Assembly: GCF_036507355.1 (NCBI RefSeq)
Contig: NZ_AP027877.1
Length of the DNA: 64,000 bases
Origin: Escherichia coli
Lineage (GTDB): Bacteria > Pseudomonadota > Gammaproteobacteria > Enterobacterales > Enterobacteriaceae
Reading direction: 5' to 3' (one strand)
Position 1 is the first letter of the stretch. Each line of letters opens with the position of its first letter. A program made the position numbers and the translations under genes. Below, in pieces: positions 12,773 to 55,215 of the stretch. Below the pieces are notes generated by a model. That model had not been told where the DNA came from. It ran no database searches and saw only the letters and a list, made by a program, of their open reading frames with translations.

Positions 12773-13117
12773 GTGACTTCATTACAACTCTCAATCGTCC
12801 ATCGACTGCCGCAGAACTATCGCTGGTCTGCTGGTTTCGCAGGTTCGAAGGTTGAACCGATTCCGCAAAATGGACCGTGCGGTGACAACAGCCTGGTGGC
12901 GCTTAAATTGCTTAGCCCGGATGGTGATAATGCATGGTCGGTGATGTATAAACTAAGCCAGGCGTTAAGCGACATCGAAGTTCCATGTTCGGTGCTGGAG
13001 TGTGAAGGTGAGCCGTGCCTGTTTGTAAATCGCCAGGACGAGTTTGCTGCAACATGCCGATTGAAAAATTTTGGTGTGGCAATTGCCGAACCCTTTTCAA
13101 ACTACAATCCTTTTTAA
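12773..13117 (+). CDS. yejG: Uncharacterized protein YejG (114 aa)
   Basis: ORF of the expected length at the expected position; function not inferable from sequence. Confidence 0.75.
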
Positions 13118-24765: not shown

Positions 24766-24941
24766 AGGAGTCACGTCTTAGTAACGATTAATTAACAATG
24801 ACAGTGTAAAGTTATATGACAGCAATTGAAATTGGTCTGGATTGTTAATGCGATGAAGTGTGAGGGCGATCAATCAACGAGTGAAAATTGCGGGCATAAG
24901 GTGTTCAGGAAGCGCAAAATAGAAGATTGGTATAATAAATT

Positions 24942-24975
24942 AAAAAAGGGACAGCCTGAGCTATCCCTTTTCTGC
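24942..24975 (-). terminator. Rho-independent terminator downstream of efpL
   Basis: Minus strand reads gggatagctcaggctgtccc followed by TTTTTT. Confidence 0.6.
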
Positions 24976-24987
24976 ATGCGGCTGAAG

Positions 24988-25560
24988 TTAGTCAGCACGC
25001 CCCATATAACGGCGTTCTTCGATATGGATACGAATTTTTTCGCCCGGGCTTAAGTATTCTGGTACCTGAATCACCAGACCAGTGCTCAATGTCGCCGGTT
25101 TGTTACGGGCGCTGGCAGATGCCCCTTTGATGCCTGGTGCGGTTTCAACGATTTCCAGATCAACGGTCTGCGGCAGCTCAAGCGCCAGCAGTTGACCGTC
25201 CCAGGTCAGCACCTGCATGTCCGGCATGCCGCCTTCTGGCATAAACAGCAACTCTTCTTCAATCTGATCTTTGGTGAAGGTATACGGGGTATAGTCTTCT
25301 TTATCCATAAAGACATATTCGTTACCATCGACATAGGAGAAGTCAACGTAACGGCGGGTCAGCGTCACGGTGTCAACGATATCATCACCTTTGAAACGCT
25401 CTTCTACTTTCAGCCCGGTACGGACATCAGAAAAACGCATTTTGTACAGCGTAGCGGCACCGCGGGCAGTGGGCGACTGAATATCAATGTCCTTAACCAG
25501 CAGCAGTTTGCCGTTGTAATTCAGTACCATACCTTTTTTAATTTCGTTCGCTCTTGGCAT
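24988..25560 (-). CDS. efpL: Elongation factor P-like protein EfpL/YeiP (190 aa)
   Basis: [30 protein letters not shown]... EF-P-like fold; start trimmed from the 275-aa track ORF. Confidence 0.9.
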
Positions 25561-25714
25561 CGAAAAATTCCTGTAGTCGAAAATGTCAAAAATATCGCGA
25601 CAAAGTACTCGCGACGGGCCTTTCGGGCAAGTGGTATTCGCACTTTTGCTGGTGCAAAAAAGGTGGTACTGTGCGCGCTCATCAATCCGGTGGTTAACCT
25701 TAAGAGAACAACGT

Positions 25715-25969
25715 ATGGAATGCCGTCCGGGTTGCGGGGCGTGTTGCACTGCCCCTTCAATTTCCAGCCCTATTCCCGGTATGCCAGATGGCAAGCCCGC
25801 CAATACGCCCTGCATTCAGCTTGATGAACAGCAACGCTGTAAAATTTTCACCTCGCCACTGCGGCCGAAAGTCTGTGCAGGCTTACAAGCCAGCGCTGAA
25901 ATGTGCGGTAACTCGCGTCAGCAGGCAATGACCTGGCTTATCGATCTGGAAATGCTGACCGCGCCTTAA
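25715..25969 (+). CDS. yeiW: Cysteine-rich UPF0153 protein YeiW (84 aa)
   Basis: [27 protein letters not shown]... with conserved Cys cluster; divergent from efpL. Confidence 0.8.
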
Positions 25970-27147
25970 ACATCTTTAATCCGCAGTAAGCAAAACAGAG
26001 TGGCGATAATCATCACCATCGCAAACCAGAACACAGCGTGATAATTCCAGATCTCGGCGACGATGCCCGCTACAGATCCTGCGATGATCCAGCCCACGCG
26101 CGACGTGTTGGTATAGAGCGTGGTGGCTGAACCTGCCTGACCGGGCATCAAATCCTGAAAATAGAGCATCCCGATGCCGCCCAGAATGCCAATAAAAATA
26201 GCATTTAGCAGTTGCAAGCCCAACAGAATGGCAGGTGAATGCGCCATCAGCATTCCTGCGTAAAAACAGACGCCACCCACGGCAGCAACGCGCATTAAGA
26301 AACGCTTACCCAGACGTTTGGCAAAATATCCGGCAATCAACATGGTCGGGATTTCCAGCCCGGCGGCGGTCCCCATCATTACGCCTGCCAGTTTCTCGGG
26401 AAGATGCAGTTCGTTGATTATAAATAGCGGCATGTTGATGATGTACAGACTGTTCGAGCCCCACATCAATGTACAAATGACAAACAGCAGCAGCGTATCG
26501 CGACGGTTACGGCGCGGCGCTTCAAGCGTGCCGGTCGCCAGCGGAAGCTCTTTTTGCATCGACGGTAAAAACAGCCACACCATCACGCCGCAAACAATAA
26601 ATGCTACCGCTGCGCTCAGATACATTACCGTAAAGCTGAACCCCATCGCTAAGGCATAAGCCAGCGGTGGGCCAATGACCCATGCCAGTGAAACCTGAGC
26701 GCGTAAAAAAGAGCTGAACATCACCGCCTCACGTCCGGTTTTGTCGGCATGTTCACGGGCAAGGGCAAACATTTGCGGGTTAGCGGTCGAGCCAAAGCTG
26801 CTAAGAAAGACGCCAACGAATAGCAAAACAAAGTAGTTGCGATTCCAGGCAAAAAGGGTGCAGGCCAGCACGCCTAACAGGCAGCAAAAGACAATCAGCG
26901 ATTTGCGATCGCCGCGCTTATCAGAGCGCCCGGCGAGAAACTGACTCACCAGAATCCCAATGACAGCGCTGCCGGTAAAGAAGAATCCCACCATCGCCGG
27001 ACGGGCATGTACTTCATCGGTAAGAAAAATACTGAGTGTCGGGGTTTGCAGAGCGCCCGCAATACCGGTGAGAAAGGCAACGATTAAAAACGCCGTCGAG
27101 GTCAGGTCAAACGATTTCGCGCTGGAGACTGCGGGGGAGTTATGCAT
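25966..27147 (-). CDS. setB: Sugar efflux MFS transporter SetB (393 aa)
   Basis: 12-TM MFS ORF; its stop codon overlaps the yeiW stop on the opposite strand. Confidence 0.9.
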
Positions 27148-27413
27148 GCTGGTCGATCACTGGAAGAGGAAGACGCGGAGTTTACGCTGCTTGTCAGAAA
27201 ATAAACAGACAGCGAAATCAAAAGCGCCACGAATAATCAAAATGCCATTTCACTGTTGCTGATTGGCTGCTGACGCTGCTGAAATGAAATTGCTGATAAC
27301 GGATTTTCCCATCAGCAATTAGGAAAAATGACAAAAAATTGTGCAGCACATCAAACTTTTGCTCATAACTTTACGGCTTTCCTTGCGTGCTGAAACAGAA
27401 GTATTATGCTTTC

Positions 27414-27427
27414 TTGAAACGTTTCAG
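27414..27427. promoter_or_regulatory. Cra (FruR) operator in the fruBKA promoter
   Basis: TTGAAACGTTTCAG, a near-perfect palindrome matching the Cra consensus, about 90 bp upstream of fruB. Confidence 0.75.
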
Positions 27428-27479
27428 CGCGATCTTGTCTTTAACCCTAAGCCAGGTTGGCGCTTTTTTTCTCATAGAA

Positions 27480-27493
27480 GCTGAATCGTTTCA
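27480..27493. promoter_or_regulatory. Second Cra (FruR) operator in the fruBKA leader
   Basis: GCTGAATCGTTTCA matches the Cra consensus, about 25 bp upstream of the fruB start. Confidence 0.75.
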
Positions 27494-27514
27494 ATTCAGC
27501 AAGAGAGGAGAACT

Positions 27515-28645
27515 ATGTTCCAGTTATCCGTACAGGACATCCATCCGGGCGAAAAGGCCGGAGACAAAGAAGAGGCGATTCGCCAGGTCGCTGCGGCGCT
27601 GGTGCAGGCCGGTAATGTAGCAGAAGGCTACGTCAATGGCATGCTGGCGCGCGAACAGCAAACCTCAACGTTCCTCGGCAATGGTATTGCTATTCCACAC
27701 GGCACTACCGACACCCGCGATCAGGTGCTGAAAACCGGCGTTCAGGTATTTCAGTTCCCGGAAGGCGTCACCTGGGGTGACGGTCAGGTAGCGTACGTAG
27801 CGATCGGTATTGCTGCCAGCTCGGATGAGCATCTGGGCCTGCTACGCCAGCTGACCCACGTACTGAGCGATGATTCCGTTGCTGAACAACTGAAGTCAGC
27901 AACAACAGCAGAAGAACTTCGCGCATTGCTGATGGGCGAAAAGCAGAGTGAGCAGTTGAAGCTCGACAACGAAATGCTGACGCTGGATATCGTCGCCAGC
28001 GATCTGCTGACTCTTCAGGCGCTGAACGCTGCGCGTCTGAAAGAAGCGGGGGCAGTTGACGCCACTTTCGTCACCAAAGCCATCAATGAACAACCGCTGA
28101 ACCTCGGACAGGGCATCTGGCTGAGCGATAGCGCCGAAGGCAATCTGCGTAGCGCGATTGCGGTAAGCCGTGCGGCAAATGCTTTTGATGTGGACGGCGA
28201 AACGGCAGCCATGCTGGTGAGTGTGGCGATGAATGACGATCAGCCCATTGCGGTTCTTAAGCGTCTCGCTGATTTGTTGCTCGACAATAAAGCTGACCGC
28301 TTGCTGAAAGCGGATGCGGCAACGTTGCTGGCGCTGCTGACCAGCGATGATGCGCCGACCGACGACGTGTTAAGCGCGGAGTTTGTGGTGCGCAATGAAC
28401 ACGGCCTGCATGCTCGTCCAGGTACCATGCTGGTCAACACCATTAAACAATTTAACAGTGATATTACCGTGACAAACCTTGATGGCACCGGCAAACCGGC
28501 AAACGGACGTAGTCTGATGAAAGTTGTGGCACTTGGCGTTAAGAAAGGTCATCGCCTACGCTTTACCGCCCAGGGTGCAGATGCTGAACAGGCGCTGAAA
28601 GCAATCGGCGACGCTATCGCTGCTGGTCTTGGGGAGGGCGCATAA
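27515..28645 (+). CDS. fruB: Fructose PTS fused IIA/FPr diphosphoryl transfer protein FruB (376 aa)
   Basis: N-terminal EIIA-Fru domain and C-terminal HPr-like domain ([11 protein letters not shown]). Confidence 0.93.
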
Positions 28646-55039: not shown

Positions 55040-55215
55040 GTGTGGTTTTGTAGGCCGGATAAGGCGTTCACGCCGCATCCGGCGACAGGAGCCAAATGCC
55101 GGATGCAACGCTGGCGCGTTTTATCCGGCCTACAATGAGCTCAACATACTGATTTGTATGGTTTTGTAGGCCGAATAAGGCGTTCAAGCCGCATCCGGCG
55201 ACAGGAACCAAATGC
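55040..55215. repeat. BIME cluster: tandem pairs of REP units
   Basis: gtaggccggataaggcgttcacgccgcatccggcgacagg and ...gccggatgc... repeated twice, about 110-bp period. Confidence 0.85.

Follow-up and report, generated by a model that had tools for sequence, protein, structure and literature searches.

The sequence analysed here is a window of 64,000 nucleotides of Escherichia coli DNA (contig NZ_AP027877.1), in which the genes yeiW and setB converge and share their last bases (Table 1). The YeiW protein belongs to the Pfam CxxCxxCC family (PF03692, E = 7e-8); its score of 33.5 bits exceeds the gathering cut-off of 23, and the CxxCxxCC motif is present as CRPGCGACC. SetB matches the Pfam family MFS_1 at E = 8e-44. 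The labels 'small cysteine-rich protein' and 'sugar efflux pump', which had been given to the two products from the DNA letters, are consistent with both Pfam and RefSeq. For YeiW, 3399 homologues lie at E <= 1e-10. From Enterobacterales to Betaproteobacteria its amino acids are kept and the third codon positions vary. The C-terminus of SetB, ...RIKDV, is kept up to the stop codon in 39 species. In RefSeq, yeiP (-) is divergent from yeiW, and fruBKA (+) is divergent from setB. The setB-yeiW locus is found in 5408 of 5426 complete E. coli genomes, and NZ_CP048605 is 99.7% identical to the window across 2.6 kb.

Table 1. Coordinates of the genes, junction elements and terminator-like sites around setB and yeiW
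Feature	Position in window	Strand	Basis
Strong terminator-like hairpin after yeiP, 14 pairs and a T run	24942..24973	-	Terminator scan
yeiP, EF-P-like protein; co-oriented with setB, divergent from yeiW	24988..25560	-	RefSeq, Pfam
Hairpin GTCGCGAGTACTTTGTCGCGAT followed by ATTTTT, with palindromic TCGCGA arms, about 30 nt upstream of the yeiP start	25594..25615	-	Terminator scan
Full antisense of yeiW, downstream of the setB stop; G >= C throughout	25715..25965	-	Composition
yeiW coding sequence, 84 aa, YkgJ/CxxCxxCC cysteine-cluster protein	25715..25969	+	ORF, RefSeq, Pfam
Hairpin GGGGCGTGTTGCACTGCCCC followed by TTCAATTT, within yeiW	25736..25760	+	Terminator scan and published 3' ends
Interrupted 15-bp palindrome/hairpin straddling both stops	25953..25992		Folding, z -1.2 (+), -1.8 (-)
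TTAA containing both stop codons	25966..25969		Sequence, ORF frames, RefSeq; orthologous tetramers in 41 other species
setB coding sequence, 393 aa, MFS sugar efflux transporter	25966..27147	-	ORF, RefSeq, Pfam
Antisense to the setB 3' end, first ~120 nt past the yeiW stop; C-rich, G-poor	25970..26089	+	Composition

The shared tetramer closes the segment cgcgccttaa (25960-25969). Read on the plus strand, yeiW starts with ATG at 25715, and its 84 codons are followed by the stop TAA at 25967-25969. Read on the minus strand from 27147, setB has 393 codons, and its stop TAA is the reverse complement of 25966-25968. With their stops included, the two coding sequences have four nucleotides in common, and the stop codons themselves have two (25967-25968). 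The RefSeq annotation of the best-matching genome (L001) has the identical geometry, with yeiW at 3716..3970 (+) and setB at 3967..5148 (-). The overlap of stops on opposite strands, as first reported with gene names and coordinates, is right by the letters, the ORF frames and RefSeq.

When a converging ORF lies in the matching phase, a pyrimidine followed by TAA or TAG is a stop for both ORFs. The setB-yeiW junction is a 4-nt convergent overlap of this YTAR type, in which two genuine coding sequences lie tail to tail on opposite strands and both stops fall in one YTAR. The four sequences CTAA, TTAA, CTAG and TTAG make up the modal class of convergent overlaps and cause the jump seen at length 4 (Lillo and Krakauer 2007, PMC2174442). 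That census holds 1890 convergent overlaps in 58 genomes, 1218 of them longer than 4 bp (PMC2174442). The window contains ten convergent junctions, with spacings of 210, 101, 138, 3, -4, 67, 55, 31, 242, and 387 nt. The pair yejG (+) and yejF (-), at 13117/13121, is a second near-abutting convergent pair with 3 nt between the stops, and is also on the ExcludonFinder list (PMC12288877). As a pattern, the setB-yeiW overlap is not beyond chance and represents a common mode of abutment of tail-to-tail bacterial genes. It is also already known from the RefSeq annotation, from the tetramer class described in 2007, and from ExcludonFinder in 2025.

The conservation of the junction was followed in 80 fetched yeiW loci, one genome per species, with yeiP, yeiW and setB located in each. 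A convergent setB is present in 52 species, and the exact -4 geometry occurs in 42 of these, spanning Escherichia, Citrobacter, Kluyvera, Enterobacter, Kosakonia, Buttiauxella, Cedecea, Pluralibacter and others. Once the near-identical copy of the window (L001) is left out, the tetramers of the other 41 loci are TTAA (20), CTAA (18), CTAG (2), and TTAG (1). All substitutions within the tetramer are transitions at positions 1 and 4, and they are silent for both genes. Position 1 pairs a third-position change in Pro CCY with TAA/TAG on the other strand, and position 4 pairs TAA/TAG with Val GTY. Beside the tetramer, the third position of the yeiW Ala codon takes all four bases. The restriction to silent transitions is the signature of ordinary stop-codon constraint. 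Without its stop SetB would be 16 amino acids longer, and YeiW without its own would be 24 longer, with the mutated stop counted as a sense codon. Conservation of the exact junction across the family could also mean selection on the overlap itself, and sequence cannot separate the two.

Outside this geometry, outgroup species have setB/yeiW spacings of 2, 6, 22, 47, and 322 nt, a 13-nt overlap (-13), and also -4. In Rahnella, the SetB ORF extends 13 codons beyond the homologous region, up to the complement of the yeiW stop. A tally of the listed stops in loci lacking the -4 overlap gives TGA as the yeiW stop in 26 of 38; TGA is incompatible with a YTAR junction. Within the family, the stops are separated by 19 nt in Citrobacter sp. 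MGH106 (L035, 3253-3277), where the filler is a small palindrome, GAGCC...GGCTC, by 25 nt in K. oxytoca (L079, 3250-3280), and by 32 nt in Klebsiella indica (L060, 3253-3290). In Entomohabitans (L041), yeiW ends in TGA and an extended setB gives a 28-nt overlap. The exact overlap is dispensable: it is gone, with both genes retained, in Klebsiella, one Citrobacter, Entomohabitans, and Salmonella.

Salmonella: the phase-variable, horizontally acquired opvAB operon sits between setB and yeiW in this genus (PMC12902445). Salmonella YeiW is absent among the best 120 protein matches to E. coli YeiW because its identity is just 63%; SetB and YeiP are 90% and 98% identical. Four loci (L083-L086, Salmonella-like metagenome contigs) were instead recovered with a published setB primer sequence. 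Their setB and yeiW stops are 1241-1245 nt apart with opvAB between them (e.g. L084, 2250-3495), and yeiW stops at TGA. The setB end reads ...ATTAAAGATGTTTAA and is followed by a 64-nt spacer that contains a hairpin, GCGCAGAG-tttat-CTCTGCGC, then by opvB and opvA on the opposite strand, and then by a region of 19-40% G+C. L083 has an extra partial yeiW fragment (amino acids 1-28) upstream of yeiW.

In Enterobacter (E. cloacae complex), the literature places the EcloIMEX carbapenemase islands between setB and yeiP. Ten E. cloacae contexts of one YeiW protein all have the plain 4-nt overlap, and none has an island. The terminator-less junction may be a preferred landing place for acquired DNA, with opvAB, EcloIMEX and the short Klebsiella and Citrobacter fillers as examples. 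A dif-like XerC/D site was considered as the cause of EcloIMEX insertion and rejected: the E. coli dif 28-mer has no match at <=3 mismatches in the window, and none at <=7 in window positions 24-28 kb and the 81 fetched loci.

The palindrome around the two stops consists of the last codons of SetB (LLRIKDV) and YeiW (LTAP). It is flanked by UGUUUU and AUUUCC on the minus strand and by GGAAAU and AAAACA on the plus strand, with neither an A-tract nor a U-tract, and the terminator scan did not report it. Across 39 species, 74.2% of the cells pair, compared with 74.4% in column shuffles, and there is no covariation; the covariation score is reached by 96 of 500 shuffles. As a conserved RNA element, the hairpin is rejected on its modest folding z-scores (Table 1), on pairing that equals the shuffled control, and on covariation that is not significant. 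It does not qualify as a bidirectional intrinsic terminator either, as it has no A-tract/U-tract flanks and no 3' ends mapped on both strands (Adams 2021).

The terminator scan found no terminator-like site downstream of the yeiW stop or the setB stop. On the plus strand, the first ~120 nt beyond yeiW have a C/G ratio of 1.62 in both 80-nt windows, with GC skews of -0.23 and -0.20, and Rho might load here onto the yeiW transcript. From its base composition, the yeiW 3' UTR is probably short and Rho-limited. On the minus strand, the C/G ratio past the setB stop is 0.68-1.00 as far as ~25726 and reaches 1.44 only at 25725-25646, which is yeiP-yeiW intergenic DNA. No terminator-like site was found by the scan on this strand between 25966 and 25616. 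Since G equals or exceeds C across yeiW, which is poor for Rho, read-through from setB probably covers all of yeiW. The hairpin that follows, upstream of yeiP, could halt read-through from setB or belong to the yeiP leader; the Term-seq data give yeiP no 3' end (Adams 2021, PMC7815308). The hairpin after yeiP is the first convincing intrinsic terminator downstream of setB on the minus strand.

RNA 3' ends have been published for a position inside yeiW. The curated Term-seq data of Adams 2021 cover three conditions (PMC7815308). They place 3' ends at window positions 25759/25760, which are +44/45 from the yeiW ATG and MG1655 2265251/2265250(-) (PMC7815308). These ends lie 4 nt past the hairpin GGGGCGTGTTGCACTGCCCC, which the terminator scan had flagged. 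Their intrinsic terminator score is 6.97 and their Rho score 1.36 ('No'), so they are not Rho-dependent (PMC7815308). They apparently occur in all three conditions, as the gene name is found three times in the table. The ends could mark early termination of transcription or the point where an exonuclease halts. Some of the RNA from the yeiW strand thus stops short of the overlap.

The internal hairpin lies over the CGACCTAP codons, and its outer pairs are set by the Gly-Ala...Ala-Pro codons. The centre pair of the +21..+41 hairpin is canonical in 39 of 81 sequences, compared with 33 +/- 3.3 in shuffles (P ~0.06), and covariation is absent. Its T-rich tail is allele-specific and missing even from another E. 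coli; CTCAATCT is an alternative allele of the tail. A conserved attenuator at this site is unsupported, given the codon-dictated pairs, the P of ~0.06 and the unshared tail; the published K-12 3' end stands.

Expression of the locus appears weak, as indicated by DirectRNA-seq coverage of 26-27 reads per 800 nt (PMC7815308). Vanillin raises yeiW RNA 9-fold and the activity of its promoter region 4.3-fold (PMC5291986). The same study names setB neither in its text nor in its supplementary list of top induced genes. The promoter scan of 24800-27600 gave no sigma-70-like site at the scan threshold.

What published transcript data say on the junction is indirect and covers a small number of laboratory conditions. 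In ExcludonFinder (2025), setB-yeiW is one of 165 convergent excludons that occur in no fewer than 50% of 58 MG1655 RNA-seq sets (PMC12288877); this listing is nearly automatic because the two coding sequences already overlap. On either strand and in all conditions, the Term-seq data of Adams 2021 are without a 3' end between positions 2263539 and 2265250 of MG1655, and they have none for setB or full-length yeiW (PMC7815308). The Rho-region table of that study has nothing in 2263800-2264199 and 2264600-2265299, which cover about two-thirds of setB plus yeiW. The p19 dsRNA-capture list includes fruK, yeiP and yeiQ and has neither setB nor yeiW, which may come down to low expression. None of setB, yeiW and yeiP is named in the SMRT-Cappable-seq supplements. 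The absent Term-seq and dsRNA signals may just reflect low expression.

The original prediction held that the two mRNAs must have complementary 3' ends and that the arrangement permits mutual antisense interference or transcriptional collision. The first part applies to full-length mRNAs, given the geometry, the lack of a terminator downstream of either gene and the ExcludonFinder listing; it does not apply to the part of the yeiW RNA that stops at +44/45. The second part is permitted by the geometry, but it gains no support and is weakened by the Term-seq data, the dsRNA list, the losses of the overlap and the lack of covariation. As for the 3' ends that were to be defined, published Term-seq places none at the junction, and by the +44/45 end part of the yeiW transcripts stop before setB.

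The junction is probably an ordinary YTAR tail-to-tail overlap, a product of compaction held in place by stop-codon constraint. Most likely, convergent setB and yeiW lost the spacer between them in an ancestor of the Enterobacteriaceae. The outgroups hint at such an ancestral state, as they keep spacers of 2-322 nt and yeiW there mostly stops at TGA. Purifying selection on the two stops and on both conserved C-termini would then have kept the junction. As there is no longer a base between the two genes, an indel or a transversion alters the length of one protein. There is also no room for a terminator, and full-length transcripts of each gene therefore enter the partner gene. Judged by base composition, their ends are presumably set diffusely by Rho, decay, or polymerase encounters; the yeiW transcript would meet C-rich, Rho-friendly sequence at once, and the setB transcript would meet G-rich sequence across yeiW. 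The transcript overlap is therefore probably a by-product of compaction and not a dedicated switch. Interference between setB and yeiW is possible. Its extent is probably minor, given that expression of both genes appears weak in laboratory cultures and part of the yeiW RNA ends at +44.

A functional excludon is an unlikely alternative. Here the terminator-less junction would itself be selected, and transcription of one gene would lower the other via collision and/or RNase III, making SetB sugar efflux and the stress-induced YeiW mutually exclusive. The pair is catalogued as a convergent excludon in at least half of the 58 RNA-seq sets (PMC12288877), no terminator separates the genes, and the -4 junction is kept in 42 of 52 species, but stop-codon constraint by itself can account for that conservation, and lineages have repeatedly shed the overlap while keeping both genes. 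The induction of yeiW by vanillin fits an excludon, and is set against the absence of setB from the text and top-induced list of that study. Termination driven by collision is on record for convergent pairs in E. coli; the collision model, however, needs a defined stem-loop with flanking tracts, which this junction lacks, and there is neither a Term-seq 3' end nor structural covariation at the site. There is also no p19 dsRNA hot spot at setB-yeiW, although low expression could explain this.

Slightly less probable still is a working asymmetric excludon, in which antisense RNA from setB silences YeiW and transcription of yeiW truncates setB by collision. The setB RNA would in that case form a full-length yeiW antisense through the Rho-unfavourable G-rich sequence, perhaps reaching into the yeiP leader, and stress-induced transcription of yeiW (e.g. 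by vanillin) would collide with transcription of setB. If interference of this kind were true, a sugar efflux pump would be linked to an aldehyde-stress-induced cysteine-cluster protein.

The chances are slim that setB and yeiP form a noncontiguous operon, in which the setB transcript crosses yeiW in antisense into yeiP, co-transcribing setB and yeiP and silencing yeiW. The two genes are co-oriented and flank the opposite-strand yeiW, as the gene order of such an operon demands. The minus strand past setB is G-rich with no terminator-like site until 25615, and the first strong terminator comes after yeiP. Against this, a hairpin with a U5 tract lies on the minus strand between yeiW and yeiP. 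ExcludonFinder gives three noncontiguous operons in MG1655, and setB-yeiP is not among them (PMC12288877). The adjacency of yeiP and yeiW is kept in many taxa that lack setB, and yeiP therefore has its own promoter. The SMRT-Cappable-seq supplements, in which the genes go unmentioned, do not help this reading.

An annotation artefact, in which one ORF is miscalled (a wrong stop or a non-gene) and there is no true overlap, is effectively refuted: yeiW is short and the ORF list also has a 128-aa version with an upstream start, but the yeiW stop is unchanged whichever start is used, YeiW has a Pfam domain and keeps its protein sequence from Enterobacterales to Betaproteobacteria under synonymous variation, and SetB is conserved through ...RIKDV to its stop in 39 species.

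Elsewhere in the window, the plus strand carries a hairpin, AGCCAGGTTGGCGC followed by T7, at 27446-27471, 44 nt upstream of the fruB ATG (27515). It is flanked by the palindromes TGAAACGTTTCA and GCTGAATCGTTTCAATTCAGC, which are presumably the Cra/FruR operators upstream of fruB. It coincides with a very strong 'orphan' Term-seq 3' end at MG1655 2263539(-) (PMC7815308). Its read counts are 218,310 and 431,335, its intrinsic terminator score is 9.6, and no characterised element is noted for it (PMC7815308). The hairpin resembles a leader terminator of fruBKA. Rfam gives matches that exceed the gathering score for naRNA4, a REP-derived nucleoid-associated RNA, at 55053-55130 (+), for the L25 ribosomal-protein leader upstream of rplY at 8513-8538 (-), and for tRNA-Pro at 4724-4797 (-).

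The ordinary stop/stop overlap of setB and yeiW has little weight as a discovery. It is a clean and conserved teaching case of how abutting stops lock a junction. Natural controls for regulation by such overlaps are at hand in the Klebsiella spacers and the Salmonella opvAB insertion.

Compared with the 4-bp convergent stop/stop overlaps of the 2007 census (PMC2174442), the setB-yeiW junction is exactly alike in geometry, and its orthologues use all four tetramers. Its origin is consistent with the stop-codon-mutation model of that study, as illustrated by the extensions in Rahnella and Entomohabitans. There is no difference in kind; setB-yeiW is an example that is well conserved in one bacterial family. 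Bidirectional terminators and programmed RNAP collisions (Wang, Watters, Ju and Liu, bioRxiv 10.1101/2022.10.23.513370) likewise involve a convergent pair with a palindromic stem-loop at the gene boundary. In contrast to those elements, the setB-yeiW hairpin lies inside coding sequence, and it has no A-/U-tracts, no covariation, and no Term-seq 3' end on either strand. Among the convergent excludons (PMC12288877), setB-yeiW is itself an entry and has a very short intergenic distance, as most entries do. Excludons are defined by mutual exclusion and RNase III dependence, whereas setB-yeiW is known by its transcript-overlap listing and is without a p19 dsRNA entry. Like the noncontiguous operons (PMC12288877), the locus has two co-oriented genes, setB and yeiP, around the opposite-strand yeiW. 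It falls outside the three reported E. coli cases, and the likeness is one of gene order alone.
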